Source: an uncultured Ramlibacter sp.
GTDB taxonomy: Bacteria; Pseudomonadota; Gammaproteobacteria; Burkholderiales; Burkholderiaceae_C
NCBI GenBank assembly: GCA_964519795.1
Contig: CAZFKW010000004.1
Location: forward strand, 1-25,065
Direction: 5' to 3'
Length of the DNA: 25,065 nucleotides
Every line of letters starts with the position of its first letter. Within the stretch, counting starts at the first letter, position 1. A model generated the notes under the pieces. It had not been told where the DNA came from, made no database searches, and saw only the letters and a list, made by a program, of their open reading frames with translations. Positions 1,261-18,494 of the stretch are shown in pieces. The position numbers and the translations under genes were made by a program.

Positions 1261-1396
1261 AGAGTAGTTTCCCGGACTTGCCGCCAGGCCTCGGCTGCTC
1301 CCCTGGAATCATCCCGAACAACGCAGCGTTGCCTTTTTTTCATACTTCCTGAGACGCATCGCCCCTACATTGGGTGCAGACTTACAAAGAGACAAG

Positions 1397-2758: not shown

Positions 2759-2771
2759 TACCGACCCGCAC

Positions 2772-4898
2772 ATGAAACCCGAAGCCATGCCGTCGCCGCC
2801 CCACTCGATCTCGCTGTTCGATGCCATCTTCTCGCCCCGTGCCGTGGCGCTGGTGGGTGTGTCAGGCGATGCATCCCGCAACACTGCCAGGCCCCTGCGC
2901 TTCATGCGCAAGCATCGATATGCAGGAAAGATCTACCCGGTCAACGCGACCCGCGCTGAGGTGCTTGGCGAGAAAGCCTGGCCTTCGATCGCAGCCATTG
3001 GCGAGGACCCAGGCAGCGGCACGCAAGTTGACCATGTCTTCGTGATGATTGCGGCCTCCCAGGTTGAACAGGCACTTGAGCAAAGTGCGGCGCTCGGCGC
3101 GCGCGTTGTCACCGTTTTCTCTGACGGTTTCGGCGAAGCCGGCGAAGCGGGACAGAAAAAGCAGGACGCCCTGGTAGCCAGGGCGCGCGCGCTGGGTTTG
3201 CGGCTGATCGGCCCCAACAGCATCGGCACCGTCAACACCCACAATGGCGCACTCATCTCGGTGAACGCGGTATTCGAGATGGAGCACCTGCCCCCCGGCC
3301 CCATCAGCATGGTCTCGCAAAGCGGCTCCATGCTGGGGTCGCTCCTCTCGCGCGGTGCGGTACGGGGATTCGGCTTCGGCAAGCTGCTGTCTGTGGGCAA
3401 TGAGAGTGACGTGACGGTCGGCGAGATTGTCGACGGGCTGGTGGACGACCCCCAGACCAAAGTCATCACACTCTTTCTCGAAACCCTGCGCGATGCGCCC
3501 GTGCTGGGCCAGGCACTGGACCGCGCGCGGCTGGCGGGCAAGCCGGTCATCGCCTACAAGCTCGGCCGCTCGGAGATGGGCAGTGCACTGGCGCAGTCGC
3601 ATACCGGTGCGCTTGCAGGTAACGACGCGGCCGTCGATGCCTTCTTCCGCGCGCATGGCGTGCTTCGTGTGGAAATGCTGGAGTCATTGTTCGAGATGAC
3701 GCCACTGGCAACGCGTTATGTCAGGGTGCCATGCATTACCGGCCGCAAAGCCCGGCTGGCCGTGATAACCACCACGGGTGGTGGCGCGGCTGCGGTGGTG
3801 GACCGTCTGGGCCTGCGCGACATTGATGCCATTGCGCCACCTGCCGCGTTCGTCGAGCACATGCTTGCGCGGGGCCTGAAGATACGCTCGCAGCCAGTGG
3901 TGGACCTTACACTGGCCGCCACCAGCGCGCAGTACCGCGACCTGGTGGAGCAGATGTTGCAAAGCGACTGGTGCGACGGTGTGTTGAGCGTCGTGGGCTC
4001 ATCAGCGCAATTCCATCCGGGCCTGGCTGTGAAGCCCCTGCTGCAGGCAGACAAGCCGGCGGACAAGCCCCTGGCGGTGTTCCTCGCGCCTGACGCTCAG
4101 CAGTCGCTGAAGCTCCTGCAGGAAGCCGGCATCGCCGCCTTCAGGACTCCTGAGGGCTGCGCGGATGCGTTGTCAGCCTTTTTCTCGCGCCGTCCTCAGC
4201 AAGTCAGCGTTCCGCTGGCAGCACCGGTGTGGCCCGACGGCGTGCCACGGCACGGCGCACTGAATGAAATGGAAGCTTCTGGCGTCTTCTCGGCGCTGAA
4301 AATCCGGATGGCCGAGACGCGCCTGCTCAATGTCAACCGTCTGGAGCACGGCCTGTCCTACCCGGTGGTGTTGAAAGTCTGCTCCCGGGACATCGCACAC
4401 AAGACCGAGGTCGGCGGCGTTACCGTGGGCATTCGCGATGAAGCGTCGCTTCGCGCACGCGCGCAGGAGATGCGCGAGCGCGTCGCGCTGAACGCACCTG
4501 ACGCCGAAGTGGACGGGTACCTTGTGCAGCGCATGGAAAAGGGCCTGCTGGAGCTGATGCTGGGCTTTCGCCATGATCCGCTGGTCGGCCCCATCGTGGT
4601 GCTCGGCGCGGGCGGCATCACCGCCGAGATCACGCCGGACGTTTCGGTGTCAATGGCGCCTGTCAGCCGCGAACGCGCTGTCGAGATGATCAGCGAGGTA
4701 CGTGCCACGCGACTGGTCCGGGGATTCCGCGGCTTGCCCCTGGGCGACTGCGACGCGCTGGCAGATGCCATCGTGGCCTTCTCGATGCTTGCGCTGCACA
4801 AGGCCCCCGCCATTGCCGAAGCGGAGATCAACCCGCTCTTCGTCAAGCCCGAAGGCGAGGGCGTGGTGGGCGTTGACGGCCTGATCGTCCTGCGCTGA
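2772..4898 (+). CDS. Acetate-CoA ligase family (NDP-forming acyl-CoA synthetase; fused CoA-binding, ligase and ATP-grasp domains)
   Basis: PRAVALVGVS, YPVN, IGPNSIG, SQSG, SVGNESDV, SHTGALAG, YPVVLKV..DIAHKTEVGGV and EINPL. Start ATG 2772 (alternative 2787), just after the upstream stop. Confidence 0.92.
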   Translation: MKPEAMPSPPHSISLFDAIFSPRAVALVGVSGDASRNTARPLRFMRKHRYAGKIYPVNATRAEVLGEKAWPSIAAIGEDPGSGTQVDHVFVMIAASQVEQALEQSAALGARVVTVFSDGFGEAGEAGQKKQDALVARARALGLRLIGPNSIGTVNTHNGALISVNAVFEMEHLPPGPISMVSQSGSMLGSLLSRGAVRGFGFGKLLSVGNESDVTVGEIVDGLVDDPQTKVITLFLETLRDAPVLGQALDRARLAGKPVIAYKLGRSEMGSALAQSHTGALAGNDAAVDAFFRAHGVLRVEMLESLFEMTPLATRYVRVPCITGRKARLAVITTTGGGAAAVVDRLGLRDIDAIAPPAAFVEHMLARGLKIRSQPVVDLTLAATSAQYRDLVEQMLQSDWCDGVLSVVGSSAQFHPGLAVKPLLQADKPADKPLAVFLAPDAQQSLKLLQEAGIAAFRTPEGCADALSAFFSRRPQQVSVPLAAPVWPDGVPRHGALNEMEASGVFSALKIRMAETRLLNVNRLEHGLSYPVVLKVCSRDIAHKTEVGGVTVGIRDEASLRARAQEMRERVALNAPDAEVDGYLVQRMEKGLLELMLGFRHDPLVGPIVVLGAGGITAEITPDVSVSMAPVSRERAVEMISEVRATRLVRGFRGLPLGDCDALADAIVAFSMLALHKAPAIAEAEINPLFVKPEGEGVVGVDGLIVLR

Positions 4899-4930
4899 CC
4901 CCTTTGAACAACCATCCCTGCACAGAACAC

Positions 4931-6079
4931 ATGAATTTCAATCTTTCTCCCGAACAGGCCGAATTCCAGACCGCAGTGCGGCGCTTTGCCGAAAAGCACC
5001 TCAAGGCAGGCGCGCTGGCGCGCGCCCACTCCGATGACTACCCGCGCGACGTGGCGCAGTTGATGGCGGCGCAGGGCCTGCTGGGCATCACCATTGCCGA
5101 GGCCGACGGCGGCCAGGGCGGCAGCCTGATGGATGCCGTCATCGCGATCGAGACCATCGCCTCCGTCTGTCCGCGCAGTGCGGATGTGGTGCAGGCCGGC
5201 AACTTTGGCGCCATTCGCGTACTGGCCGAATACGGCAGCGCGCACCAGAAGGAAAATTACCTCAGGCCCCTGCTTGCCGGGAAGACGCTGATTGCCGTCG
5301 GCATGACCGAGCCGGGCGCAGGTTCCGCCGTCACCGAGCTTGTCACCGCAGCCACGCCCGATGGCGACGGATTCCGCATCAATGGCAGCAAGATATTCAC
5401 CACCCATGGCCCGCACGCCGACGTGTTCCTGACCTATGTGCGCTTCGGCCCCGGCGTCAGGGGCATTGGCTCGGTGCTCATCGAGACCGCCATGGAAGGC
5501 GTCACGCTGGGCAAACGCTCGCGCTTCACCTCGGGGGAGGAATGGGTGGAAATCTTCTTCAACAACGTGTTCGTGCCGAAAGAGATGGTCGTGCTGGGCG
5601 AAGGCGGTTTCAAGAAGCAGATCGCAGGCTTCAACGTCGAGCGGCTGGGCAACACCGCCCGCTCGCTTGCGCTGGGTCGCTATGCGTATGAAGAGGCGCG
5701 CCAGTGGGCGCTCCAGCGCAGGCAGTTCGGGCGCCTGCTGTGCGAATTCCAGGGCCTGCAATGGAAGTTTGCCGACATGCGCATCAAGCTGGACGCGGCG
5801 CAGTTGCTGCTGTACCGCGCAGCCACCAACGCCGACACCGGCTTTCCATCGCCCACGGAGACGGCCATTGCCAAGGCCTATTGCAACCAGACCGGCTTTG
5901 ATGTGGCCAACGATGCCATGCAGGTGCTCGGCGGCATGGGATACAGCCAGGAGTCGCTGGTGGAGTACTGCATGCGCCGCTGCCGCGGCTGGATGATTGC
6001 CGGCGGCTCCATCGAGATCCTGAAGAACCGGATCGCCGAAGCGGTGTTTGAACGGACTTTTTCACAGCGGCCGGACTGA
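4931..6079 (+). CDS. Acyl-CoA dehydrogenase family protein
   Basis: MTEPGAGS, NGSKIFTT, RRQFG, FQGLQWKFADM, QVLGGMGY. Start ATG 4931. Confidence 0.95.
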   Translation: MNFNLSPEQAEFQTAVRRFAEKHLKAGALARAHSDDYPRDVAQLMAAQGLLGITIAEADGGQGGSLMDAVIAIETIASVCPRSADVVQAGNFGAIRVLAEYGSAHQKENYLRPLLAGKTLIAVGMTEPGAGSAVTELVTAATPDGDGFRINGSKIFTTHGPHADVFLTYVRFGPGVRGIGSVLIETAMEGVTLGKRSRFTSGEEWVEIFFNNVFVPKEMVVLGEGGFKKQIAGFNVERLGNTARSLALGRYAYEEARQWALQRRQFGRLLCEFQGLQWKFADMRIKLDAAQLLLYRAATNADTGFPSPTETAIAKAYCNQTGFDVANDAMQVLGGMGYSQESLVEYCMRRCRGWMIAGGSIEILKNRIAEAVFERTFSQRPD

Positions 6080-6133
6080 ACCGCCCGGACTGCCATGCAG
6101 CCTGCCCACTGACACAACTGCCGGAGACAAATC

Positions 6134-6616
6134 ATGAACGCCAACACAACCGCGTCAAACGAATCCACACTGTCGTCCCGCCTGCTGGGCACACTCACCC
6201 TTGACATGGGACGGGCGCACGACCTGGGCGTCACACCCAGCGGCTGGCGCCGCATGCGTGAACTGCCCAGCGGCACGCTGGTCGGCCCCCGCATCAACGC
6301 CAGGGTGCTGACTGGCCTTGACGCCTTCCTGCGCAAGAGCGACGACAGCATGCACAGTGACGTGCGCCTGGCGATTGAGACCGATGATGGCGCGCTGATC
6401 TACCTGGCCTACCGCGGCGTGCGCTACGGCAGCCCCGAGGTCATGAAGAGGATCGAGGCCAACCAGCCCGTGAGCGACGACGAGTACTACCTGCGGAATG
6501 TGCCGACATTCGAGACCGCCAGCCCGCAGTACGAGTGGCTGAACCGCGTGATTGCCGTCGGCGTGGGGCGGCGCATGCCCAATGCGGTTGCCTACACCTT
6601 TCACGAGATCCTGTAG
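6134..6616 (+). CDS. DUF3237 domain protein
   Basis: DVRLAIETDDGALIYLAYRG and FETASPQYEWLNRVIAVGVG are typical of DUF3237. GGAGA RBS upstream. Confidence 0.88.
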   Translation: MNANTTASNESTLSSRLLGTLTLDMGRAHDLGVTPSGWRRMRELPSGTLVGPRINARVLTGLDAFLRKSDDSMHSDVRLAIETDDGALIYLAYRGVRYGSPEVMKRIEANQPVSDDEYYLRNVPTFETASPQYEWLNRVIAVGVGRRMPNAVAYTFHEIL

Positions 6617-6693
6617 GACGCCAGGGCAGGCGCGCCGGCATTTGCTTCGGCGACTTCAGCTGGCGCAACGGGGTTCGCAGGGCGACGAGGGCC

Positions 6694-7803
6694 TCAGGCG
6701 CTCTTGATGATGGTGTCCTGCGATGGAAGGCCTGCGCTCGTCTCGCCCCGGATGTACTGGTGCGGCACTGTCACCTTCGCGCCCAGCGTCTCTGCGGCAT
6801 GCCAGGCCCAGCGGGGATCGTTGAGGAAGCCGCGGCCGAGCGCGACAAGGTCGGCATCGCCACGCTCGACGATGGCCTGCGCATGCGCCGGATCACGGAT
6901 CAGGCCCACGCACATCGTTGCGACATCGGCCTCGCGCCGGACCTGCGCCGCATAGGGCACCTGGTAGCCGGGGCCAAGCGGTATCTCGGCGCGGGCGCTG
7001 CCGCCGGACGACAGGTCCATATAGTCGATGCCGCGTGCCTTCAGTTCGCGCGCAAACGCGACAGCATCATCGCCGGTGAGGCCGCCTTCGAGCCAGTCGG
7101 TGCCATTGAAGCGCACGCCCATCGGCTTGTGGGCGGGCCATGCGGCGCGCACGGCCTCGATCACCTCCAGCGGGTAGCGCATGCGGCCCTCGCGGTTGCC
7201 GCCGTACTCGTCGGTGCGCGCATTGCCAAGCGGTGACAGGAAGGAGCTGAGCAGATAGCCATGGGCGGCGTGGATTTCAAGCAGGTCAAGGCCCAGCCGG
7301 TCGGCGCGCCGCGTAGCCTTGACGAACGCATCCCGCACACGCTCGAGGCCGGCGCGGTCCAGGGCCTGAGGGGCTTCCCAGCCCGGGCCGAACGCGATGT
7401 CCGTGGGGCCGAAGGTCTTCCAGCCGCCTTCGGCCAATGGCAGGTTGCCGCGGCCGGCGCCGGGCGCGCGCACTGATGCCTTGCGCCCCGCATGGCCGAG
7501 CTGGATGCCGATCGGCATGCTCGCAAACGGCCGGACGAATGCGAGCACGCGTGCCAGCGCGGCTTCGTTTTCATCGGACCACAGGCCCAGGCATTCGGCC
7601 GTGATGCGGCCCTCGGGCTCGACGCCTGTAGCCTCGATCACCAGCAAGCCGGCGCCCGATACAGCGTACTGGCCCAGGTGGATCACGTGCCAGTCGGTGG
7701 CATTGCCGTTTACGGCGCTGTACTGGCACATGGGAGACACCACGATGCGGTTGGGCAGCGTGAGATCGCGCAATTTGAAGGTCTGGAACAGGGCGCTCGG
7801 CAT
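6694..7803 (-). CDS. NADH:flavin oxidoreductase, Old Yellow Enzyme family (YqjM/NamA-like)
   Basis: NRIVVSPMCQYSA, QLGHAGRKAS, EIHAAHGYLLSSFLSP, NARTDEYGG and ALGRGFLNDPRW. Start moved to ATG 7803. Confidence 0.95.
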   Translation of the reverse strand: MPSALFQTFKLRDLTLPNRIVVSPMCQYSAVNGNATDWHVIHLGQYAVSGAGLLVIEATGVEPEGRITAECLGLWSDENEAALARVLAFVRPFASMPIGIQLGHAGRKASVRAPGAGRGNLPLAEGGWKTFGPTDIAFGPGWEAPQALDRAGLERVRDAFVKATRRADRLGLDLLEIHAAHGYLLSSFLSPLGNARTDEYGGNREGRMRYPLEVIEAVRAAWPAHKPMGVRFNGTDWLEGGLTGDDAVAFARELKARGIDYMDLSSGGSARAEIPLGPGYQVPYAAQVRREADVATMCVGLIRDPAHAQAIVERGDADLVALGRGFLNDPRWAWHAAETLGAKVTVPHQYIRGETSAGLPSQDTIIKSA

Positions 7804-7935
7804 CGGTACTTCCATGAAAAAAAACGGGCTCACCGCATTGTCCGGGCAGCTGTGCACCATGCCATCCAATTGAGGTGGCCGGTGATGAAAAGCATCTTTG
7901 CAGCTCGCGCAACGACACATCCCCGTGCGGGCGGT

Positions 7936-8826
7936 ATGCTGTGCGGACAGGAGACATGCCTTGACTCATTCCATACCCCAAACCGCCGCGCCAATGCGCA
8001 GAGCAGCACGCCCATCACAAGGTACCCTGCGTACAACGCTGCGATTGTTGCCCACGCCGCCCGGGTGCTCGGGCCGGGTGTTGAAGTCGTGGTACGCGGC
8101 ACCTTGCGCCCGACCTTCGGCAAGTACACACGCGCCGCATTCTTCCTCAAGAGCAGCGACATGATGGACTCCATCGTCGCCGCGGCTGATGAAGGGTTTG
8201 ACGGCGTGGGGATTGGCTGCTTCCTCGACCCGATCCTGCATGAACTGCGCGAGATCCTGGATATCCCGGTCATGGGCCTGGCCGAAGCCGGCATGCATAT
8301 GGCCTGCATGCTCGGCCAGCGCTTTGCCATCCTGTCGCACTCCGAGGCGCTCAACGTCAAGGTCTATGACAGCCTGGCCGACAAGTACGGCCTTCGCGCC
8401 CGCATGAGCGGGATGCTTGCGGTGGACCTTCCCATGGACGCCCTCGAAACGGCCATTACCGGAGACCCGGCGCCAGCCATTGCCCTGATAACCGACGCAG
8501 CGAAGCGGCTCGTGGACCAGGGGGCCGAAGTGATCGTGCCGGGCTGCGGGCTGCTCAACCTCCTGTGTGTCCAGCAAGGCCTCAGCCAGGTCGCCGGCGC
8601 CACTGTGCTTGACGTGACCGGCGCACTGCTCAAGACAACCGAGACAATGATCACGCTGCGGCGGGTATCTGGCACCGGCGTGAGCCGCACCGGCTACTAT
8701 GCGCGCCCGGCCGAGGCTGATGTGCGCAAGACGCTCGCTTCGTTCGGCCGCGGCAAGGTGGGGGGAACCGAGGCCGCCCCGGCGTCCCGTGCTGCATCCA
8801 CGCCCGGACCAAAGGCGATGGCATGA
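7936..8826 (+). CDS. Asp/Glu/hydantoin racemase family protein (5' end uncertain, possibly damaged)
   Basis: Two-Cys motifs GIGCFLDP and VPGCGLL, plus LREILDIPVMGLAE. Recognisable family sequence begins at about 7999 (QSSTPI). In-frame ATGs only at 7885 and 7936, both without a good RBS. Confidence 0.8.
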   Translation: MLCGQETCLDSFHTPNRRANAQSSTPITRYPAYNAAIVAHAARVLGPGVEVVVRGTLRPTFGKYTRAAFFLKSSDMMDSIVAAADEGFDGVGIGCFLDPILHELREILDIPVMGLAEAGMHMACMLGQRFAILSHSEALNVKVYDSLADKYGLRARMSGMLAVDLPMDALETAITGDPAPAIALITDAAKRLVDQGAEVIVPGCGLLNLLCVQQGLSQVAGATVLDVTGALLKTTETMITLRRVSGTGVSRTGYYARPAEADVRKTLASFGRGKVGGTEAAPASRAASTPGPKAMA

Positions 8827-9992
8827 GCATCAAGGGACAGGCCTTTATCGCAGGCGCCTTCGAGCACCCGACCCGCCACGCCCCGGACAAGTCCGTCGCC
8901 CAGCTCCACGCCGAATGCGCGCGCGGCGCGCTGGCCGATGCCGGGCTGGACAAGAATGACATCGACGGCTACTTCTGCGCCGGCGACGCGCCCGGGCTTG
9001 GCGCCTCGTCCATGGCAGATTACATGAACCTGCGGCTGCGCCACATCGACAACACGGACACTGGCGGCAGCTCCTACCTGATCCATGTGGCGCATGCGGC
9101 GCAGGCGATCGCGGCAGGCAAATGCAATGTCGCGCTGATCACGCTGGCAGGCAGGCCGCGCAGCGAGGGCATGGCTACAGGAACGGCACCGCGCCCCGGC
9201 AACCCGAACCAGCCCGACCTGGAGTGGGAGCTGCCCTACGCACCGGCGACAGTCAACATGTATGCCATGGCTGCGATGCGGCACATGCACGAGTTCGGCA
9301 CAACGAGTGAACAGCTGGCATGGGTCAAGGTAGCCGCCTCGCATCATGCCCAACACAACCCGAACGCCATGCTGCGGGACGTGCTCACCGTTGACCAGGT
9401 GGTCGCCTCGCCCATGGTGGCCGACCCCTTGCACCGGCTCGACTGCTGCGTGATCAGCGACGGTGGCGGAGCACTGCTGGTAGTCAGGCCGGAGATTGCG
9501 AGGAGCCTCAAGCGGCCCCTGGTCCGGGTGCTGGGCGCCGGGGAAGCCATCAAGGGGCAGTTCGGCGGTGACGTGGATCTCACCTATTCCGGCGCGGCAT
9601 GGTCGGGACCGGCAGCGTTCAGCGAGGCCGGCGTGACACCACAGGACATCCAGTACGCATCGATCTACGACAGCTTCACCATCACGGTTCTGATGCAGCT
9701 GGAAGACCTGGGCTTCTGCAGGAAGGGCGAAGGCGGCCGCTTCGTGGCCGACGGCAACCTCATCTCCGGCACTGGCCGCCTGCCCGTCAACACTGATGGC
9801 GGCGGCCTGTGCAACAACCATCCGGGCAACCGTGGCGGCATGACCAAGGTGATCGAGGCGGTGCGCCAGTTGCGGGGAGAAGCCCATGCGGCTGTGCAGG
9901 TACCCAACTGCGCACTGGCACTCGCCCAGGGAACCGGCGGCTCGCTGGGCACGCGCCACGGCAGTGCCACCCTGATCATGGAAAGGGTCTGA
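8823..9992 (+). CDS. Thiolase-fold protein, SCP-x/Ltp2-like, lacking the nucleophilic Cys
   Basis: DTGGSS in place of the CxS motif, plus LDCCVISDGG, IYDSFT, NTDGGGL and EAVRQLRG. ATGA overlap with the racemase stop. Confidence 0.92.
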   Translation: MSIKGQAFIAGAFEHPTRHAPDKSVAQLHAECARGALADAGLDKNDIDGYFCAGDAPGLGASSMADYMNLRLRHIDNTDTGGSSYLIHVAHAAQAIAAGKCNVALITLAGRPRSEGMATGTAPRPGNPNQPDLEWELPYAPATVNMYAMAAMRHMHEFGTTSEQLAWVKVAASHHAQHNPNAMLRDVLTVDQVVASPMVADPLHRLDCCVISDGGGALLVVRPEIARSLKRPLVRVLGAGEAIKGQFGGDVDLTYSGAAWSGPAAFSEAGVTPQDIQYASIYDSFTITVLMQLEDLGFCRKGEGGRFVADGNLISGTGRLPVNTDGGGLCNNHPGNRGGMTKVIEAVRQLRGEAHAAVQVPNCALALAQGTGGSLGTRHGSATLIMERV

Positions 9993-9993
9993 C

Positions 9994-10404
9994 ATGGAAG
10001 GCAACATTCCCCTGGAAGAGCCGGCGCGCACCATCGCGGCCATCACGCGCCAGCCCGGCATGCAGCGCTTTCAGGACGCTGCCGAACAAGGTGTGTTCCT
10101 GATTCCCCGCTGCAAGGGCTGCGGCCGGCACCACTGGTACCCCCGCCTGCTGTGCCCGTTCTGCTTCAGCGACGACATTGACTGGCAGTCAGCCACCGGC
10201 AACGGCACGGTCTACAGCTGGACGGTCATGCGCCGGGCAAAGCCTGCGTATGCGATCGCCTATGTCCGGATGGACGAAGGTCCCGTGGTGATGACGAACA
10301 TCGTGGGCTGTGATCTGGATTCAATCAGCATCGGCATGAGGGTACGCGCCGTGTTCCAGCCCGCTTCCAACGGGCCGCTCGTGCCGATGTTCAAACCCGC
10401 CTGA
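9994..10404 (+). CDS. DUF35 family Zn-ribbon/OB-fold protein (thiolase partner)
   Basis: CKGC..YPRLLCPFC zinc ribbon, G.GTVYSWTV, and EGPVVMTNIV..IGMRVRAVF. Starts 1 nt after the thiolase stop. Confidence 0.93.
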   Translation: MEGNIPLEEPARTIAAITRQPGMQRFQDAAEQGVFLIPRCKGCGRHHWYPRLLCPFCFSDDIDWQSATGNGTVYSWTVMRRAKPAYAIAYVRMDEGPVVMTNIVGCDLDSISIGMRVRAVFQPASNGPLVPMFKPA

Positions 10405-10434: not shown

Positions 10435-11418
10435 TCAGGCCAGCGCGCCCGCCTGGCGCTGGAACTGCTCCACGTGGCTGAAGTATTCACGCATGGTGGC
10501 GACGGCACCGCCGGGATCACGGGCACGCAGGCGTGCGACCATCTGCCTGCGCAACGGTGTCAGCTCCGGCTGGTGCATCGAGGCATAAGGCATCACGTCC
10601 GCCTGGGCAGTGACCGTATGGTGCATCAGCGTCCCCAGCGTGTTCGCCACCAGCGCGAGCACGTCGTTGTGGGCTGCGCGGGTGATCAGCGCAAAGTAGT
10701 CCAGGGCGGCCAGTGCCCGCGCGGCCATGTCGCCGCGTTCAGTCTTGGCATCCATTTCGGCCAGGTGCTGATCCATGGCATCAAAGTCCGCTTCCTCACC
10801 ACGCTCACAGGCCAGTTGCAGCAGCAACTCATAGACCCCGGCACGTGCCTCGATCAGCGACTTCAGGGGCAGCTTGCCCTGCGACGCCAGGTCGCGCAAT
10901 GACTGCGCCAGCATCATGTAGGCGCCCTTGTAGAACACCAGCGGGTCCTGCTCGCGCCCGTGCTCGAACCGCTCGACCTTGCCAATGAAGATCACGTGGT
11001 CGCCGGCCTCATGCTGCGCAAATGTCGTGCAGTGAAACCGGGCCACGCAGTCATCAATCAGTGGCATGCCGCCAAATCCCTCGCTGTGCCCGACGCCTTC
11101 AAACTTGTCGGCAATGGCACCGCTGGCAAAGCGTGCGGACAGCTTGCTCTGGTCCTCCGCCAGCACGTTGATGGCGAATCCGCTGCCGCTGCGGAACGCC
11201 TCCATCGACTTGCTCGCATTGCGCAGGCTCCACAGCACCAGCGGCGGGTCCAGGGACACCGAGCTGAACGAGTTGCAGGTCAGGCCTACGGGCTTGCCAT
11301 CAGGCCCGCGCGTCGTGATGATCGCCACGCCGGTCGGAAAGGTTCCCAGCGCCCGGCGGAACCCGGCTGCGTCAAATGGCGGCGTGCCGGTGTGATGGGC
11401 GTCGGGACGTTCAGTCAT
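10435..11418 (-). CDS. Flavin reductase (HpaC/RutF-like) fused to a C-terminal FCD (GntR ligand-binding)-like domain
   Basis: N-terminal half: FRRALGTFPTGV, GLTCNSFSSVSLDPPLVLWS, AGDHVIFIG, PLVFYKGAY. C-terminal half is helical (IEARAGVYELLLQLACER...ITRAAHNDVL...AVATMREYF). ATG 11418 has AAGGAG upstream. Confidence 0.85.
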   Translation of the reverse strand: MTERPDAHHTGTPPFDAAGFRRALGTFPTGVAIITTRGPDGKPVGLTCNSFSSVSLDPPLVLWSLRNASKSMEAFRSGSGFAINVLAEDQSKLSARFASGAIADKFEGVGHSEGFGGMPLIDDCVARFHCTTFAQHEAGDHVIFIGKVERFEHGREQDPLVFYKGAYMMLAQSLRDLASQGKLPLKSLIEARAGVYELLLQLACERGEEADFDAMDQHLAEMDAKTERGDMAARALAALDYFALITRAAHNDVLALVANTLGTLMHHTVTAQADVMPYASMHQPELTPLRRQMVARLRARDPGGAVATMREYFSHVEQFQRQAGALA

Positions 11419-11464
11419 GTATGTCTCCTTGCGGGGCCTTGCAGCACCCTTGCCTGCATCTGCT

Positions 11465-11842
11465 TCAACCGGCGCGGGGGGCACGGCGGAACATCTGCAC
11501 AATATTGCCTTCGGGATCCCGCATCGACAGCACGGCGCCATGGCTGCCCATGTCGCGGATACCGGTGACTTCCCCGCCCGCCTGCCTGACCGATGCCTCG
11601 ATGCCGTCGAAGTCCTCAACCTCAAACACCAGCACGGCGCCCGATTGCGCCGGGCTGGCCTCTTCCAGGCAGGCCAGCGAAAAGCCGGTGACCGCGCCGT
11701 CGCCCGTCGTGTACTGGACCCAGCGATCCGCGTCACGGAACTTCAGGGGCAGGCCCAGCACCGACTCGTAGAAGGCCGACTGCGCAGCCACGTCGCGCGC
11801 TGCCAGGTAGACGTTCTGCAGTTTCCTTACTTTCGCAGTCAT
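11465..11842 (-). CDS. VOC (glyoxalase/bleomycin resistance) family protein
   Basis: AFYESVLGL, LVFEVEDFD and RDPEGNIVQM. ATGA overlap with the MaoC gene stop. Confidence 0.88.
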   Translation of the reverse strand: MTAKVRKLQNVYLAARDVAAQSAFYESVLGLPLKFRDADRWVQYTTGDGAVTGFSLACLEEASPAQSGAVLVFEVEDFDGIEASVRQAGGEVTGIRDMGSHGAVLSMRDPEGNIVQMFRRAPRAG

Positions 11843-12723
11843 GACATCTCCTCCTGCTGCGCCATCCGGGCATGCCCGTGGGACAGGACTTCAACATTTC
11901 GTTCCTTGCACAAGGCGCGAAACACGATTCCGCCTTCGTCACGCCACATATGGGTGACCAGGGTCTCCCCCGGATACATGGGAGCCGCGAAGCGCGCGCC
12001 GATGGCGCCAATCACCAGGGGCGCAAAGCGCTCTTCCATCATTCGCGCTGCAAGGCCGAACGACAGCAGGCCATGGGAGATCGGCCGCTCGAATCCGGCG
12101 ACACGCGCCACCCCGGGATCGGCGTGAAGCAGGTTGTAGTCGCCGTTGAGGCGATACAGCAGTGCCGCCTGCGGGCGGGTTGGCAGTTCCGCAATCTCAT
12201 CCGGCGCCCGTTCAGGGACTGCAGGCGCGCGCGGGGCAGGGGCCGCAGGCGCTGTCGCCTGTGCCGCACCGCCGTCAAAACCGCCATTGCGCCGGCAGAA
12301 TGTCGAACCGGCAATGGTTGCCAACAACTCGCCTGAGGCGGTGTCGTGCAACTGCCGCTCCGTCTGTATGACCGCTCCCTTGCCTTCGCCCTTGTCGAGC
12401 ACGGCCACCACGCGGTTGCGCGAGCGGACTGTACCTTCGGCAGGCAACTGCCGGTGCAACACCAGCCGTTGTTCGCCATGCACCACACCCTTGCGATCCA
12501 CGCCTGTGGCAGGGTTGGCCGTCCAGGGGCCGGGGTGCGCAAGCACCAGCGCCATGGTGGGAAAGGGGCGCAGCCCGTCCTCCAGCACATGGCGCAACTG
12601 GCGCGGATCCACCGGGTCATCGCCAAAGCCGAGGCTGAGCGCATACAGCTGCGTGTCGCGCACGGTATAGCGCTGCACGACCTCGTCAAACGGCCAGTTG
12701 AGCAGGGTGTCGCGATTGATCAT
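11839..12723 (-). CDS. MaoC double-hotdog dehydratase, hydratase-2 (R-specific) type
   Basis: LYALSLG, VVHGEQ, hydratase-2 motif YRLNGDYNLLHADP, PISHGL and PMYPGETL. Start ATG 12723. Confidence 0.93.
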   Translation of the reverse strand: MINRDTLLNWPFDEVVQRYTVRDTQLYALSLGFGDDPVDPRQLRHVLEDGLRPFPTMALVLAHPGPWTANPATGVDRKGVVHGEQRLVLHRQLPAEGTVRSRNRVVAVLDKGEGKGAVIQTERQLHDTASGELLATIAGSTFCRRNGGFDGGAAQATAPAAPAPRAPAVPERAPDEIAELPTRPQAALLYRLNGDYNLLHADPGVARVAGFERPISHGLLSFGLAARMMEERFAPLVIGAIGARFAAPMYPGETLVTHMWRDEGGIVFRALCKERNVEVLSHGHARMAQQEEMS

Positions 12724-12736
12724 GCGCAGCGCCCGC

Positions 12737-13687
12737 TCACTGCGCCTGCCATGGGAACACGTCGCGGGTGCGCTCCAGCGGAACAAAGGACTTCGCCCAT
12801 CCTTCGCCGACCTGCTCGCGCAGGCGATCCATGTTCCAGCCCTCGCTGTTCTGGAGAATCCGCACCGGCCGCGGCTGGCTGTACAGGTACAACTCGTTTC
12901 CGCGAACGCCGATGATCTGGCCGGAGATGTGTCTGGCATCATCGCTGAGCAGGTAGGCCACAACCGGCGCAATCTGCTCCGGCCGGGTGCGGGCACGGCG
13001 TGCTTCCAGATTCTTCGCCTGCTGTTCGGGCGTTGCACCGGGGACGGACTCGATCATGCGGCTGAAGGCACTGGGCGCAACGCAGTTGGATCGCACATTG
13101 AAGCGCGCCATCTCCAGCGACAGCGAGCGCGACATGCCGACGATGCCCATCTTGGCCGCCGCATAGTTGGCCTGCCCGATGCTGCCGATCAGGCCCGAGG
13201 TGGAGGTCATGTGCACAAAAGCGCCGCTCTCCTGCCTGCGGAAGATTTCGGCAGCGGCCCTGCTGACGTAGAAACTGCCCATCAGGTGAACCTTGATGAC
13301 CGCCTCGAAGTCTTCCGGTGCCATCTGGTGGAATATCTTGTCGCGAAGGATGCCGGCGTTGTTGACCACATAGTCCAGCCGGCCAAAGGTCTCCACAGCC
13401 AGCGAGACGATGCTGCGCGCGGATTCCCATTCCGACACGCTGGCGGTACTGGCAACCGCATTGCCGCCAAGGGCCTTGATCTCGCGCACGAGTTCCTCCG
13501 CCGGACCGGTATCTTCGCCCTTGCCGTCCAGGGACACGCCCACGTCGTTGATCACCACACTCGCGCCCTGCTTCACAAGGTACAGGGCGATCTCCCGGCC
13601 GATCCCACGGCCCGAACCGGTGACCACTGCCACCTTGCCATTCATGCCTTGCGCAAGTCCCGCGTCATTTGTCTGTTGCTCTGACAT
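12737..13687 (-). CDS. SDR oxidoreductase resembling the 3-hydroxyacyl-CoA dehydrogenase domain of MFE-2/HSD17B4
   Basis: VTGSGRGIG, VINDVG, NNAGILRD, VHL.GSF, TSTSGLIG, QANYAAAK. ATG 13687 has GGAGA upstream. Confidence 0.92.
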   Translation of the reverse strand: MSEQQTNDAGLAQGMNGKVAVVTGSGRGIGREIALYLVKQGASVVINDVGVSLDGKGEDTGPAEELVREIKALGGNAVASTASVSEWESARSIVSLAVETFGRLDYVVNNAGILRDKIFHQMAPEDFEAVIKVHLMGSFYVSRAAAEIFRRQESGAFVHMTSTSGLIGSIGQANYAAAKMGIVGMSRSLSLEMARFNVRSNCVAPSAFSRMIESVPGATPEQQAKNLEARRARTRPEQIAPVVAYLLSDDARHISGQIIGVRGNELYLYSQPRPVRILQNSEGWNMDRLREQVGEGWAKSFVPLERTRDVFPWQAQ

Positions 13688-13734
13688 CTGCCTGTCTCCA
13701 TTCTGGTAAATAAAAGTAGCCGGGGTCTGCGCCG

Positions 13735-14313
13735 TCAATCCATGACGGCTCTTGCAGCTTGCCGCAACGCCGGACCGGGCTTCGGGGCGCCATCCCCGGC
13801 ACCGGCCTGCCGGTACCTTCGCACCACGCCGGTGAACATCACACGCCCCTGCGCGTCGGTCACGCCCTGGGGCCAGTTCTCGCATTCGAAGGTCGCCCTG
13901 GCGGCCTCCAGCAGGGGCGCTCCGCCCAGGCCGAACTCAAAGGCCAGTGCCGCAAACCTGTCCCGGCCCTGACCCGAAAAGTTGCGAGTCACATTGCCAT
14001 CCACATCTTCCAGGACAAGGTTGAGCGAGACATGCGTTGCGTGCGTGAAAACCTCAAGCCCGGGTGTATCGCCAGGCAGCATCCAGACCAGCGACGGCAT
14101 GGAGGCGCCGGACAGAACCGGCATCCTGCAGCAGCAGGCGCCGACCAGGCTGCCATCCGCACCCTGCGCAGTGGCAACAGCGACCCACTGACCGGTTTGC
14201 CCGAGCGCAAGCGCCATACCGGAGGCGCCGCTCCTGTCGGCGACCCAGTGGCTTGTCATGCCCGGCATCTCGGGCTGTTGTTCGCGCATCGGCGATGGCG
14301 CCCGTGGTGTCAT
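13735..14313 (-). CDS. Divergent flavin-reductase-like (split-barrel) protein
   Basis: The pattern ALG..VAVAT..G..VG..SLVWML..F..A..LNLV..F..DRF..G.PLL..A.ATFEC..F.G.V aligns by eye with flavin reductases, but the key motifs are altered. ATGA overlap with the crotonase stop. Confidence 0.7.
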   Translation of the reverse strand: MTPRAPSPMREQQPEMPGMTSHWVADRSGASGMALALGQTGQWVAVATAQGADGSLVGACCCRMPVLSGASMPSLVWMLPGDTPGLEVFTHATHVSLNLVLEDVDGNVTRNFSGQGRDRFAALAFEFGLGGAPLLEAARATFECENWPQGVTDAQGRVMFTGVVRRYRQAGAGDGAPKPGPALRQAARAVMD

Positions 14314-15107
14314 GTCGGGCTCACCGGCGAAGTCTCAACCCAGGCCGGCGGCCGCTTCGCGCGGAAGGCAGCCATGCCTTCGGCAGCTTCGGCCGTCTTC
14401 ATCGACTCCACCGCAAGTTGCGACGCCAGGCCGATGGCCGCGTCAAACGGCAAACCCCAGGCACTGTCCAGCAATTGCCGGGTCTGTTTCAGGGCCAGCG
14501 GGCCCGCCTTGACGAGACTGACGGCCAGGCCTTCGACATGGGACTCAAGATCCGGTGGGGCGCAGACCTGCTGGACCAGGCCGATGGACAGCGCCTCTGC
14601 AGCGCCAACACTGCGCCCGGTCAGGCACAGGCCCAGCGCAGCGCGCCGCCCGATGGCCTGCATCAGGGAAACAGCCGTGAAAGATGGCGCAATGCCGGCA
14701 CGCGCCTCGGGGATGGAAAAGGAGGCGGCATCCGAGGCGATGGCCATGTCACACCAGCTGGCCAGCGCCACGCCAAGTCCCAGCGCCTTGCCTTCAATGA
14801 CGGCCACCGCTGGAACCGCGCAATGGCGTACAGCATGTGCGAGCCGCACGGCCGGCTGGATGCGCCGGGCGAGCGCGGCATCGTCCTCCCCTTCGTCGGC
14901 ATCAAGCTCGCCCAGGTCGCGGCCGGAGCAGAAGACACCGTGCCGGCCACGCACAAGCACGGCGCGCGCGCCCTGCCTGCCGGCCTCTTCCATGGCGACC
15001 GAGAGCGCAGCGAGCATGGAGTCGTTCAGCGCGTTGCGGCGCGCCGGGTTGTCAATCCAGCAGGTCACGATGCCACGCGCATCGCGCTGGATGTCGAGCA
15101 TCGTCAC
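14310..15107 (-). CDS. Enoyl-CoA hydratase/isomerase (crotonase) family protein
   Basis: RRNALN, FCSGRDL, ALGLG, SIPEARAGIAP, EALSIGLV and EGMAAFRAKRPP. GTG 15107 overlaps the upstream stop (alternative ATG 15101). Confidence 0.93.
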   Translation of the reverse strand: MTMLDIQRDARGIVTCWIDNPARRNALNDSMLAALSVAMEEAGRQGARAVLVRGRHGVFCSGRDLGELDADEGEDDAALARRIQPAVRLAHAVRHCAVPAVAVIEGKALGLGVALASWCDMAIASDAASFSIPEARAGIAPSFTAVSLMQAIGRRAALGLCLTGRSVGAAEALSIGLVQQVCAPPDLESHVEGLAVSLVKAGPLALKQTRQLLDSAWGLPFDAAIGLASQLAVESMKTAEAAEGMAAFRAKRPPAWVETSPVSPT

Positions 15108-16330
15108 ACAACGCCCCTGGCGCGCAGATCGTCAATGGCCGCCTGCCCGAAGCCGGCCTCCTGCAGCACTTCCTGCGAATGCTCTCCCAGGCGCGGCGGA
15201 TGGCGCCCCGAAACGTTCGCGCCCTCGCCCACCTTGAAGGGCGAGCCCAGCAGGCGCGTGGAGCGGCCATCGCCCTTGGCGACCTCGACCACCATGTGGT
15301 TGGCCAGTGACTGCCTGTGCATCAGCGCCTGGTCTATCGTATGCAGCGGCGCTATCGGCACGCCATGTTCTTCGAGCCGGGCCATCCACCAGGCAACGGT
15401 ATTGCTGCCGAAAATCCTGATGAACTCCTGCACGACCTCTTCCCGGCGCGCAAGCCGCCCCGCGTTGGTCGCCAGACCCTCGTCGTTGCCCAGGTCCGGG
15501 CGGTCAACCGCACGGCAGAGCTTGCGCCAAGTGCCGTCGTTCAACGCGCCGGTGAGGACTTCGCCATCCGTGCACCTGAATGCCTGGTAAGGCACCAGGT
15601 GCCACAGGCCCGAGCCTTCGCGGCGGGGCATGGCGCCCGCTTCAAGCCAGCCGACACCGTGGTAACCCAGCAGCGACACCGCCGTCTCCAGCAGCGATAC
15701 CCGCACCGTATTGCCCGCATGCGTCTTCTCGCGCCCCATGAGCGCGGTAAGAACGCCGCAATAGGCCAGGATCCCGGTCGTCATGTCGACAAAGGAAACA
15801 CCTGACCGTATCGGGCCGCCGTCGCGCTCGCCCGTGATCGACATGATCCCGGAGAACGCCTGCAGCAAGGCGTCATACCCCGGCCGGTCGGCAAGATCTC
15901 CATGCGCCCCGAAGGCCGAGATCGTGCTCACCACAAGGCGCGGATGCCGCGCCCTCAGGGCCGCCTCGTCGATCCCGAGGCTTTGCGCAGTACCCGGCAG
16001 GAAGCTGTGGAGCAGCACATCGGCCTGCTCCAGCAGCTTGTCGAGTACGTCGCGCCCCTCCTGCATCTTGAGGTTGATCGTGATGCCGCGCTTGCCACGG
16101 TTCACGCTCATGAAGTTGCAGCTCTCGCCCGTGTCCGTCATGGGCGCCCACTGGCGGTTCTCGTCGCCGGTCGGTGCCTCGATCTTGATCACATCGGCAC
16201 CCATGTCGGCCAGCATCTGGCCACACAATGGACCCGCCAGCACCCGGCTCAGGTCTATGACGCGGATGCCATCGAGCGGGCGCGCGGCGGCTGCAGCGGC
16301 CGCTGCATTCCCGGGAGCCTGGGCGCTCAT
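15104..16330 (-). CDS. Family III CoA-transferase (CaiB/BaiF)
   Basis: LDGIRVIDLSRVLAGP, LADMGADVIKIE, NRGKRGI, GYD, and a catalytic Asp in SFVDMTTG. ATG 16330 overlaps the LLM stop. Confidence 0.95.
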   Translation of the reverse strand: MSAQAPGNAAAAAAAARPLDGIRVIDLSRVLAGPLCGQMLADMGADVIKIEAPTGDENRQWAPMTDTGESCNFMSVNRGKRGITINLKMQEGRDVLDKLLEQADVLLHSFLPGTAQSLGIDEAALRARHPRLVVSTISAFGAHGDLADRPGYDALLQAFSGIMSITGERDGGPIRSGVSFVDMTTGILAYCGVLTALMGREKTHAGNTVRVSLLETAVSLLGYHGVGWLEAGAMPRREGSGLWHLVPYQAFRCTDGEVLTGALNDGTWRKLCRAVDRPDLGNDEGLATNAGRLARREEVVQEFIRIFGSNTVAWWMARLEEHGVPIAPLHTIDQALMHRQSLANHMVVEVAKGDGRSTRLLGSPFKVGEGANVSGRHPPRLGEHSQEVLQEAGFGQAAIDDLRARGVV

Positions 16331-17418
16331 ACAGCTTCCGCAGCGACAGGCACGGCGGCCACGTGTGGCTTGTCGTTGGCGATCTCCTTCTGCACTGCCG
16401 GAATGATCACCTTGTTCCACAACTCAAGCTGCCTGAGCATCAGCTGGTGGTCAAAGTCGCCCACCTGCGTCTGCAGGGCCACATGCACGGGGCGCACGGC
16501 CCGGATGTCCGCCACAAGCCGCTCGACCACCGTATCCACCGAGCCGACGGGCAGGTTCTTCATGAGCTTGTCCCAGGGCAGCTCTTCGTCATAGGGCTTT
16601 TCCATGACAAGGTAATCGTCCTCGACGGACTCGGTGCGCTGCTTCAGGCTCACGGCAATGCGTTGCTGATACCGGGCGCAGTCCACATAGTGCTCGACCT
16701 CCGCCTTGTTGTCGCTCGCAAATGCAAAGCGCAGCAGGCCGACTTTTGCCTTCGCCGGGTCCTTGCCCTCGGCGACTGCCAGCTCGTCAATGACACCGCG
16801 GAACCCGCCCAGCCGCTTGGTGCCGCCCAGCCCACCGGAGATGAACACGTGCTGGTCGCGGCGCAATGCATGACGCATCAGCATCGGGTCGCCGCTGGCG
16901 ATCCAGACCGGCGGCATCGGTGTCTGCACCGGACGCACGCTGATGGCGGTCATCGGCTGCTTGAAGTGCTTGCCGTCGTAGCTGAACTTCTTCTGCGCCA
17001 TGGCCAGCTCGATCATGTCGAGCATCTCCAGCGTCTTTTCCTTGGCGTTCTCCAGCGTGATGCCAAAACGCTCGAACTCGAACTGCTGGTATCCGCCGCC
17101 AACGCCAACGTTCAGCCGGCCACCCGAGAGCTGGTCAGCCATGGCGATCTCGGCGATCAGCCGGGCAGGCGTATACAAGGGTGCCACAACCACGGCCGAT
17201 CCAAGCCGGATCTTTTCAGTGACGCCGGCGCAGTACGCAGCCATCATCAGCGGAGAAGGGCAAAGACCATAGTTTGAGAAGTGATGCTCTGCATACCAGG
17301 CCGCTGCAAAGCCATTGCGGTCAGCCACCTGCGTCTGCTCGACGGCCTCTTGTATGATTTGACCGGAGGACTTCTTCTGGTTCCTCTGCTGCATCAAGAT
17401 GAAAATTCCGAAGTCCAT
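16327..17418 (-). CDS. Luciferase-like (LLM) flavin-dependent monooxygenase
   Basis: MDFGIF, WYAEHHF, CPSP, TEKIRLGSAV, AEIAMADQLSGGRLNVGVGGGY, P.Q.P.PPVW. AAGGA RBS. Confidence 0.93.
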   Translation of the reverse strand: MDFGIFILMQQRNQKKSSGQIIQEAVEQTQVADRNGFAAAWYAEHHFSNYGLCPSPLMMAAYCAGVTEKIRLGSAVVVAPLYTPARLIAEIAMADQLSGGRLNVGVGGGYQQFEFERFGITLENAKEKTLEMLDMIELAMAQKKFSYDGKHFKQPMTAISVRPVQTPMPPVWIASGDPMLMRHALRRDQHVFISGGLGGTKRLGGFRGVIDELAVAEGKDPAKAKVGLLRFAFASDNKAEVEHYVDCARYQQRIAVSLKQRTESVEDDYLVMEKPYDEELPWDKLMKNLPVGSVDTVVERLVADIRAVRPVHVALQTQVGDFDHQLMLRQLELWNKVIIPAVQKEIANDKPHVAAVPVAAEAV

Positions 17419-17498
17419 ATCGTTCCTTTTGGAGTTGCTGGCAGGCGCCCGGGGCGATGGAGATTCACCACGCCCGGCGCCTTGTCCCGGTGTTCAAA

Positions 17499-17527
17499 AT
17501 TCTAGGCAGCACCCCGGCAAAACAGAA
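17499..17527 (-). promoter_or_regulatory. Candidate sigma70 promoter for the LLM operon
   Basis: Minus-strand TAGAAT (-10) at 17499-17504, with a poor -35 (TTCTGT) 17 nt upstream, as expected for an activator-dependent promoter. Confidence 0.5.
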
Positions 17528-17550
17528 GGCACAGGCTGCGTACACCTTCT

Positions 17551-17565
17551 TTGCAATATCTGAAA
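17551..17565. promoter_or_regulatory. Candidate LysR recognition site TTGCA-N5-TGAAA
   Basis: Interrupted dyad containing T-N11-A. It overlaps the lysR start codon and is centred about 65 bp upstream of the predicted LLM start site. Confidence 0.6.
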
Positions 17566-18494
17566 TGAAGGCACTCGACACCATCCGGATCTTCGTGATC
17601 ACCCTGCAGACCGGAAGCCTTTCGGCGGCAGGCCGCAGCCTGGGTCTGTCACCCGCCACCATCTCGCGGCGCATCAGTGCGCTGGAAGAGGAACTGGGCG
17701 TACAGTTGCTGGACCGCACCAGCCGCAAGCTCACCGCGACGGATTCGGGCGTGATCTTCCAGCAGAGGGCCGAGGCCATCCTGGAAGACATGGCGCAGGC
17801 GGAGAACGCCGCGCGCCACGCCAAGGCCGCACCGGAGGGCCGCCTGCGCGTGCATTCACGCACACTGGTGGGCATCCAGCTGATCGCGCCATTGCTGCAC
17901 CGGTTCTCCGCCCGCTATCCCGAGCTGACCATTGACCTCCACCTGTCGGAGGAGCCCGTCAACCTGGTCGAGCAGAACTATGACGTGGACTTGCGGATCG
18001 GCAAGCTGGAGGATTCTTCTTATGTCATGCGCAAGCTTGGCACCGGGGAGCGGGTACTTGTCGCCAGCCCCGCCTATGTCGAAGCCCATCCCCCGGTCAA
18101 GGTGCCGGAGGACCTGGAAAGCGGCCACAACTGCCTGACCTACCGCAAGGCGCAGGAGCCCACGTTCTGGCGCTACCTGCATGGCGACCGCGTGCGCGAA
18201 CTCAAGATCAGCGGCACCGTGCATGCCAACAACGGCGAAGTCCTGCGCCGGGCGGCGTTGAGCGGCCTGGGCCTCGCGCTGCTCGCAGACTGGTCGGTCA
18301 ACGAAGACATCCGGGCCGGCCGACTCGTGCGGCTGCTGCCGGGCTACCGCCTGACAAACTCCACCTTTGACAACGGCGTGTACGCGCTGTTCCGGCACAC
18401 ACGGATGCTGCCGCAGGTTCGGGTATTCGTGGACTTTCTTGCCGACGCGCTGGGCGAGGTGGAAGCCGCAACGGACCCTGGCAGGCCCGGGTGA
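17565..18494 (+). CDS. LysR-type regulator (CrgA/DmlR-like), divergent from the LLM operon
   Basis: GSLSAAGRSLG.SPATISRRISALEEELGVQLLDRTSR HTH, P.G.LRV, and NNGEVLR.AAL.GLG. Confidence 0.96.
   Translation: MKALDTIRIFVITLQTGSLSAAGRSLGLSPATISRRISALEEELGVQLLDRTSRKLTATDSGVIFQQRAEAILEDMAQAENAARHAKAAPEGRLRVHSRTLVGIQLIAPLLHRFSARYPELTIDLHLSEEPVNLVEQNYDVDLRIGKLEDSSYVMRKLGTGERVLVASPAYVEAHPPVKVPEDLESGHNCLTYRKAQEPTFWRYLHGDRVRELKISGTVHANNGEVLRRAALSGLGLALLADWSVNEDIRAGRLVRLLPGYRLTNSTFDNGVYALFRHTRMLPQVRVFVDFLADALGEVEAATDPGRPG

Follow-up and report, generated by a model that had tools for sequence, protein, structure and literature searches.

A 25,065-nt stretch of DNA from an uncultured Ramlibacter sp. (contig CAZFKW010000004.1 of assembly GCA_964519795.1, positions 1 to 25,065; hereafter the window) contains a gene whose product joins an intact HpaC-type flavin reductase to an FCD domain, the effector-type domain of GntR/FadR regulators, in a single reading frame. 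The gene lies on the minus strand at 10435..11418 (stop codon included), where a stop-free open reading frame and its translation give a 327-aa protein, and it is the last gene of an operon that begins with a luciferase-like monooxygenase (LLM). The fusion is confirmed as real. It is no singular oddity or one-off invention, and represents a widespread, overlooked family that is annotated only generically. Gating of the reductase by a pathway ligand is plausible, and we assign a probability of about 0.5 to the full mechanism proposed here, in which the operon's LLM would receive its reduced flavin from this protein, acting as a metabolite-gated NAD(P)H:flavin oxidoreductase. An earlier, sequence-only reading of this DNA had arrived at a similar interpretation, which is partly supported by the present analysis, namely in the recruitment of a sensor domain and in the partnership with the LLM.

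The gene has a ribosome-binding site read from the sequence (AAGGAG; 11425..11430, minus strand) 6 nt 5' of its ATG. A longer frame starting at GTG would overlap the upstream gene for a glyoxalase-fold protein, and all close homologues of the fusion protein are 315-340 aa in length. A database protein of equal length (P0001) is 100% identical over a full-length alignment, and a contig search located the exact 327-aa product on 10 metagenome contigs. In a Pfam scan the protein matched Flavin_Reduct (PF01613) and FCD (PF07729) and nothing else of note, and no match to GntR or any other helix-turn-helix was obtained from Pfam even at E 10. The NCBIfam matches were limited to single domains and all fell below the family cut-offs: HPAH (p-hydroxyphenylacetate hydroxylase) reductase, FerA, HsaB and StyB for the N-terminal half, and PdhR, LldR and GlcC for the C-terminal half. 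Because it has no winged helix-turn-helix (wHTH), the fusion protein is not a DNA-binding regulator, and it is not a member of the GntR regulator family.

The reductase domain occupies residues 15-170 (10909..11376, minus strand), as defined by Pfam, PDB sequence matches, motifs, an AlphaFold (AF2) model and Foldseek. PF01613 was matched at residues 25-168 with an E-value of 1.1e-44 and 152.7 bits, against a cut-off of 27. The motifs CNSFSSVS (48-55) and GDH (139-141) are invariant among 45 homologues, as is R21, which aligns with the NADH-contacting R20 of C1, the reductase of Acinetobacter baumannii HPAH. In a search of PDB sequences, residues 15-170 aligned with C1 (5zc2) at E 4e-36 with approximately 50% identity over 156 residues; 3nfw and PheA2 were matched as well. 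The fusion and C1 have the motifs FRRALG-FxTGV, NSFxSVSLDPxLVLWS and GDH in common, and their similarity ends at residue 170. In the model, strands at 32-153 form the split beta-barrel of the reductase domain, and Foldseek matched this fold to C1, PheA2, CtcQ and SgcE6 at E-values of 1e-11 to 1e-15. By profile, motifs and fold, the domain belongs to the HpaC-type flavin reductases, and NAD(P)H:flavin reduction is its predicted activity.

Beyond the barrel, a linker helix (residues 161-179, LVFYKGAYMMLAQSLRDLA; 10882..10938, minus strand), delimited by the AF2 model, conservation and alignment, leads into the FCD domain at residues 188-313 (10480..10857, minus strand), whose helical bundle continues to about residue 326. 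The assignment is based on Pfam, the model, Foldseek and profile matches. PF07729 was matched at residues 188-313 with E 3e-13 and 50.7 bits (cut-off 24.3), covering 122 of 125 profile positions. Residues 172-327 modelled alone by AlphaFold reached a mean predicted local distance difference test (pLDDT) score of 95.8 and a predicted template modelling (pTM) score of 0.89; the full-length model (pLDDT 88, pTM 0.63) shows the barrel to residue 153 and helices at 161-326. When residues 172-327 were compared with the PDB by Foldseek, the best 50 matches were all effector domains of GntR/FadR regulators with TM-scores of up to 0.77, including PdhR, McbR (TM 0.77, 2.3 Å), DhdR, PmiR, NanR, LldR/Cgl2915, DgoR, TM0439, VanR and FadR, and profile matches of the domain were LldR, NanR, DgoR and DhdR. 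Foldseek with the full-length model returned matches to the reductase domain only, and its global superposition on C1 (root-mean-square deviation 15-18 Å) is meaningless. The architecture foreseen by the sequence-only reading, that is, an intact reductase at about residues 15-170 bearing NSF.SVS and GDH, an in-frame all-helical FCD-like domain and no winged HTH, is therefore what the Pfam and structure searches found, residues 1-170 being taken up by the reductase barrel.

To map the pocket, a profile alignment to solved FCD domains was combined with a published study of DgoR (PMC7674646). In this map, R192 (codon 10843..10845, minus strand, as for all codons given here) corresponds to R102 of DgoR, which is needed for galactonate binding (PMC7674646). 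A238 corresponds to D146, a metal ligand in DgoR (PMC7674646). Y241-F242 (10693..10698) stands at the canonical 'FH' position, equivalent to Y149-H150 of DgoR, of which H150 is a metal ligand (PMC7674646), and to F-H of Cgl2915/LldR, in agreement with the earlier remark that the usual FH reads YF here. R290 (10549..10551) takes the place of a further metal ligand, H195 of DgoR (PMC7674646) and its histidine counterparts in LldR and NanR, and Y312 that of the last metal-binding His of LldR and NanR. The Asp/His/His/His metal ligands of many FCD domains thus read A238/F242/R290/Y312 in the fusion, and the floor of the cavity no longer carries a metal site. This loss marks a subgroup rather than exclusion from the FCD fold, because PdhR-like members deviate too. 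R234 (10717..10719) precedes the former metal site by two turns of one and the same helix. In an alignment of 79 sequences (46-100% identity), R234 and R290 are invariant in 79/79, and F242, H250, N251 and R300 are conserved in ≥97%. By profile and fold the domain belongs to the FCD family, and the invariant arginines at cavity positions suggest that it may bind an effector.

The architecture is not unique to the window. Both PF01613 and PF07729 are present in each of the 120 best database relatives (53-88% identity), which are named just 'flavin reductase' or 'RutF-family'. A survey of one genome per species yielded 369 relatives, of which the best 78 loci were analyzed. In every one of these 78 the FCD domain was reached; the fusion is thus carried by at least 78 Burkholderiales genomes at the species level, and clustering at 50% gave eight separate, verified clusters of it. 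The hosts of the 78 loci are Comamonadaceae (Variovorax, Hydrogenophaga, Ramlibacter, Xenophilus, Polaromonas and others), Alcaligenaceae (Bordetella, Advenella, Orrella) and one Trinickia.

The gene contexts of the 78 loci were assigned to types by tblastn with reference proteins carrying Pfam assignments. Six loci have the arrangement of the window (type A). The order LLM, reductase-FCD, acyl-CoA dehydrogenase (ACAD), enoyl-CoA hydratase, acyl-CoA synthetase, SDR and VOC defines type D (20 loci), and a cluster that starts with an LLM and ends with SDR, VOC and reductase-FCD defines type E (8 loci). Type B (12 loci) combines TctC, an LLM of 455 aa, AtuA and DUF4387, and type F (2 loci) has an NtaA-like LLM. 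In type C (21 loci), the reductase-FCD gene is followed by genes for a 588-aa FAD_binding_2 enzyme and a NIPSNAP protein; three further loci have the order NIPSNAP, reductase-FCD, thiolase and DUF35 (type C'), and six show various other arrangements, among them an ACAD-fold gene directly upstream. These types are largely monophyletic in the reductase tree. An LLM gene lies within 8 kb of the fusion gene in 48 of the 78 loci. Where gene calls exist for type C, the fusion gene abuts or overlaps the FAD_binding_2 gene (L007:8972-11057 and L008:8993-11081). The type B cluster, running from TctC through the LLM, AtuA, DUF4387 and, in some cases, an aldehyde dehydrogenase to reductase-FCD, was seen at L005:4343-10963, at L006:3769-8969 and at about 10 more loci in Variovorax, Pseudorhodoferax, Advenella and Ramlibacter. 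One or more GntR/FCD regulator genes are found within a few kb of the fusion gene in type C; no GntR gene is near it in the window or in the other loci of types A, B, D and E, where the regulators are of the LysR type.

In the window, the operon is headed by the gene for a 363-aa LLM (16327..17418, minus strand; Pfam Bac_luciferase, E 1e-58), the presumed consumer of the reduced flavin. The interior of the operon (11465..16330, minus strand) was annotated from Pfam and from gene calls on contig L003, and the full order is LLM, family III CoA-transferase, enoyl-CoA hydratase, a small Flavin_Reduct-like protein, SDR, MaoC hydratase, a VOC/glyoxalase-fold protein and, last, reductase-FCD. Contig L003 has the same gene order, as do Hydrogenophaga, Ramlibacter and Bordetella; in Hydrogenophaga palleronii NBRC 102513, which shares the operon, the orthologue of the fusion is 82% identical. 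The small paralogue (184 aa; 13735-14289, minus strand), whose Pfam score is just below the threshold, is 30% identical to the reductase domain and has lost FRRALG, NSFxSVS and GDH; the operons of Hydrogenophaga and Ramlibacter include it, whereas that of Bordetella does not. The paralogue is probably a split-barrel protein without catalytic function. Since it is without NSFxSVS and GDH, no intact reductase other than the fusion is encoded in the operon.

We also searched for the origin of the C-terminal domain by comparing residues 172-327 alone with 1.84 billion representative proteins. Clusters of the fusion ranked first, followed by GntR-wHTH/FCD regulators of 250-296 aa, the nearest of which are 33-38% identical to the fused FCD with E-values down to 1e-17. 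A joint alignment revealed that regulators and fusions have in common the linker QSLxDL..G, the motifs EAR, LACER and HN, and 'FF' instead of 'FH', and that arginines equivalent to R192, R234, R290 and R298 are also present in the nearest regulators. QSLRDL, the second half of the linker helix, aligns with the linker between wHTH and FCD in the nearest GntR regulators, and the helix contains residues that are invariant or near-invariant among the homologues. Given this common linker and these common motifs and arginines, the reductase stands in the place of the wHTH, and the sensor module is otherwise intact. Of the complete GntR/FCD regulators, the nearest (P0126; L088:4056-10179, GCA_050955105.1) has the same metal-free 'FF' pocket signature. 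Its gene is divergent from a thiolase-like/DUF35 gene pair and lies near an Amidohydro_2 gene, the thiolase being 75% and the Amidohydro_2 protein 58% identical to those of type C, and it occupies, in this related cluster, the position where type C genomes carry the reductase-FCD gene. However, P0126 is more similar to the separate GntR gene product of type C (41% identity) than to the fused FCD (36%). An in-situ head swap on a regulator divergent from thiolase/DUF35 is at most a possible origin of the fusion.

The C-terminal domain is under purifying selection. Overall, its ratio of nonsynonymous to synonymous substitution rates (dN/dS) is 0.05-0.3 and resembles that of the catalytic domain. 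Nei-Gojobori estimates between the window gene and its type A orthologues lie at 0.14-0.32 in the C-domain and 0.04-0.16 in the N-domain, and in close Variovorax pairs they are about 0-0.3 for both domains. Dividing C-domain by N-domain identity gives 0.75-0.96 within context types and 0.53-0.68 between types. Moreover, the putative cavity positions 192, 196, 197, 243, 266, 267 and 312 are fixed in each context type and differ between types.

The known systems close to the fusion include the long flavin reductases. Those studied so far are C1, the HPAH reductase of P. putida and NtaB, the latter two being treated as C1-like in their C-terminal helices (2024 C1 study, PMC11618861). In C1, a MarR/NadR-like C-domain binds p-hydroxyphenylacetate (HPA) and controls NADH access (PMC11618861), so the precedent cited in the sequence-only reading is well founded. 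The fusion resembles C1 (PDB 5zc2/5zyr) in its HpaC-type N-domain, in the R20/R21 pair, in length (about 315-327 aa), in having a helical C-domain from a transcription-factor family after the reductase and in that the gene adjoins that of an oxygenase. It differs in that the C-domain of C1 is a winged helix of the MarR/NadR kind, whereas that of the fusion is an FCD bundle without a winged helix; no sequence or fold match to C1 extends beyond fusion residue 170, and neither Pfam nor Foldseek gave any MarR match in the fusion protein. The partner is an LLM here and a HpaB/C2-type oxygenase in C1, where the C-terminal helix lies in the NADH groove, and gating, which is proven in C1, may apply to the fusion by analogy. 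NtaB/NmoB of Aminobacter/Chelatobacter (322 aa) is likewise a long reductase of similar length that works with an LLM-class oxygenase (NtaA). One homologue of the fusion has been automatically named 'NtaB', and NtaB was considered as a prior case of the FCD architecture and rejected: it consists of Flavin_Reduct and a weak MarR_2 match (E 1.6e-4) with no FCD, and its similarity to the fusion ends at residue 189. At the nta locus on the Aminobacter plasmid, NtaB adjoins NtaA and a separate GntR/FCD regulator, which holds the FCD of that locus. Since C1 and NtaB carry a MarR-like domain instead, the FCD recruitment is independent, as had been proposed, and the fused FCD is nearest to GntR-wHTH/FCD regulators.

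Other relatives differ from the fusion in one domain or the other. FCD regulators (PdhR, LldR/Cgl2915, NanR, DgoR, DhdR, McbR) have the same seven-helix effector/dimerisation fold, the first-helix Arg (R192 here, R102 in DgoR), the HN motif and the LRARD helix; in the fusion, unlike in these regulators, the wHTH is absent, the metal ligands are replaced and the output module is an enzyme. Short reductases of the HpaC/PheA2/StyB/FerA type (150-190 aa) have the catalytic fold and motifs in common with the fusion but no C-terminal domain, and we know of no effector control in short HpaC-type reductases. Long reductases of the SMa0793 type (PDB 3rh7 and a Leisingera homologue) also consist of a reductase and about 150 extra residues and are found beside an LLM, but the extra domain of the Leisingera homologue has no Pfam match, and the similarity of this type to the fusion ends between residues 196 and 229. 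The type is 308-321 aa long; 3rh7 is deposited only as a hypothetical/putative oxidoreductase, and on the Leisingera plasmid NZ_CP038237.1 (L087:3992-5952) the long reductase gene lies directly upstream of the LLM gene. Overall, the fusion has the traits of the C1/NtaB long reductases in its regulator-derived C-domain and co-encoded oxygenase, with a C-domain that is not MarR/NadR. It therefore falls within a known kind, the two-component flavin reductases bearing an effector domain, of which the FCD version is new. A literature search for a flavin reductase fused with an FCD/GntR/FadR-type domain found no relevant paper, and the FCD fusion is a separate, undescribed kind of long flavin reductase.

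In the mechanism that we favour, a carboxylate-bearing pathway metabolite (a free acid or a CoA ester) would bind in the FCD cavity, where the metal triad is replaced by Ala238, Phe242 and Arg290, and its anion would be held by the invariant R234 and R290, with the addition of R192 and R298 in this subgroup. Binding would change the FCD dimer and the linker, as in GntR/FadR regulators, and the change would be relayed to the reductase dimer, altering NADH access or the reduction or release of flavin. Reduced flavin would then be produced mainly while the oxygenase has its substrate. Architecture, fold, residue substitutions, purifying selection, distribution of the family and operon context are established by the analysis, whereas ligand binding, the nature of the ligand and its action as an activator rather than an inhibitor are inferred. 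Several observations weigh against this mechanism. Domain packing in the full-length model is not confident (pTM 0.63) and gives no usable interdomain geometry. Two of the pocket residues are not universal: context types A, B, C and C' have Arg at position 192, but D and E have Tyr there, and Leu in place of Y312. The C-domain evolves about 1.2-1.9 times as fast as the N-domain within types and about 2.2 times as fast between them, and because this excess is only modest, we take it as no more than suggestive. The conserved C-domain could also be purely structural, because FCD is a dimerisation domain in GntR regulators. Finally, in the 21 of 78 loci of type C the fusion is paired with a FAD_binding_2 enzyme, and no LLM was detected within 8 kb, nor by the Pfam gene calls at L007 and L008; the output of the reductase therefore does not always go to an LLM. 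The earlier claim that the fusion supplies reduced flavin to the LLM agrees with the position of the LLM at the head of the same operon and with its proximity in 48 loci, but it does not apply to the family as a whole.

The main rival of metabolite gating is that the FCD domain is a passive structural module, serving dimerisation, stability or docking to the oxygenase, with no regulatory ligand. It gains from the facts that FCD dimerises GntR/FadR regulators (the PdhR entry 5tpm bears the label 'C-terminal dimerization domain'), that HpaC-type reductases are themselves dimers, that the metal site used for ligands in many FCD domains is gone, and that an interdomain autoinhibitory contact is not demonstrable in the full-length model. 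Nevertheless, short reductases of 150-190 aa function without such a domain, the invariant arginines are at cavity positions and not on the surface, the pocket signature is common to regulators of the ligand-responsive type, and the putative cavity residues are fixed per context type; we regard a purely passive role as unlikely. The same structural evidence for a ligand pocket would also serve negative control by a product or downstream intermediate, or control of the hand-over of reduced flavin as opposed to NADH oxidation. Effectors of GntR/FadR regulators may be substrates or downstream intermediates, and the family also partners a flavoenzyme other than an LLM. However, no sequence feature favours inhibition, and the only characterised analogue is activated by the substrate of its oxygenase (PMC11618861), which makes this alternative less likely still. 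In a further alternative, the protein would be a regulator without DNA binding whose FCD heterodimerises with and titrates a GntR/FCD repressor, the flavin domain reporting redox state. FCD domains do dimerise, GntR/FCD regulators lie within a few kb in type C, and P0126 sits in the equivalent position, divergent from the thiolase/DUF35 genes of a related cluster. This alternative fits poorly, because most loci, including the window, have LysR and no GntR gene; in addition, in type C the fused FCD and the GntR protein encoded nearby are only about 30% identical, and the reductase's catalytic motifs show full conservation. It would surprise us if it proved correct.

Returning to metabolite gating, it is possible, and offered here only tentatively, that the whole family consists of metabolite-gated reductases in which the DNA-binding head of a GntR/FadR repressor was swapped for a reductase, each subfamily being tuned to the ligand of its own pathway. 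In two-component flavin monooxygenases, a reductase that runs without substrate wastes NADH and makes H2O2. To our knowledge, the prevention of this waste by an effector domain has been worked out only for C1, which uses a MarR-like domain. Ligand gating of the FCD fusion, if real, would mean that a transcription-factor sensor had been recruited to this enzyme a second time, independently, and the effector domains of regulators would appear as reusable enzyme switches: an effector pocket and linker that once governed DNA binding would now govern electron supply post-translationally. Moreover, knowing each subfamily's ligand would reveal which substrate an orphan catabolic cluster handles, such clusters including several LLM-based pathways and one based on FAD_binding_2, and the ligands would point to the substrates of several widespread LLM/CoA-dependent catabolic clusters in Comamonadaceae and Alcaligenaceae. 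Being small and confidently folded in the model, the FCD domain could be screened for ligands. It could also provide parts for substrate-controlled biocatalytic cascades or biosensors.

Several neighbouring genes complete the picture of the window. Divergent from the operon lies a gene for a LysR-type regulator (17457..18494, plus strand; Pfam HTH_1 and LysR_substrate), whose position is conserved and which likely controls transcription of the operon. On the other side, a thiolase-like (SCP-x type) and DUF35/ChsH2-OB gene pair (8823..10404, plus strand), identified by Pfam and the context survey, is convergent with the fusion gene. This pair stands beside the fusion gene in three arrangements, type A having the two convergent, type C divergent and type C' co-directional, and the association recurs independently of the LLM (loci L019-L040, L061, L063 and L065). 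NCBIfam gave only generic or below-cut-off names for the operon proteins and the nearest regulators, and it gave no pathway-specific name for the proteins scanned from 1370-8826. That region is densely packed with genes of acid/CoA-ester catabolism, encoding PrpD/MmgE, an NDP-forming acyl-CoA synthetase, an acyl-CoA dehydrogenase, a DUF3237 protein, an Old Yellow Enzyme and an Asp/Glu-racemase-family protein. Within the operon, the longest open reading frame for the CoA-transferase has 94 nt (16327-16420) in common with the end of the LLM gene; gene calls on an identical contig place its start later, leaving a 4-nt overlap that is typical of translational coupling.

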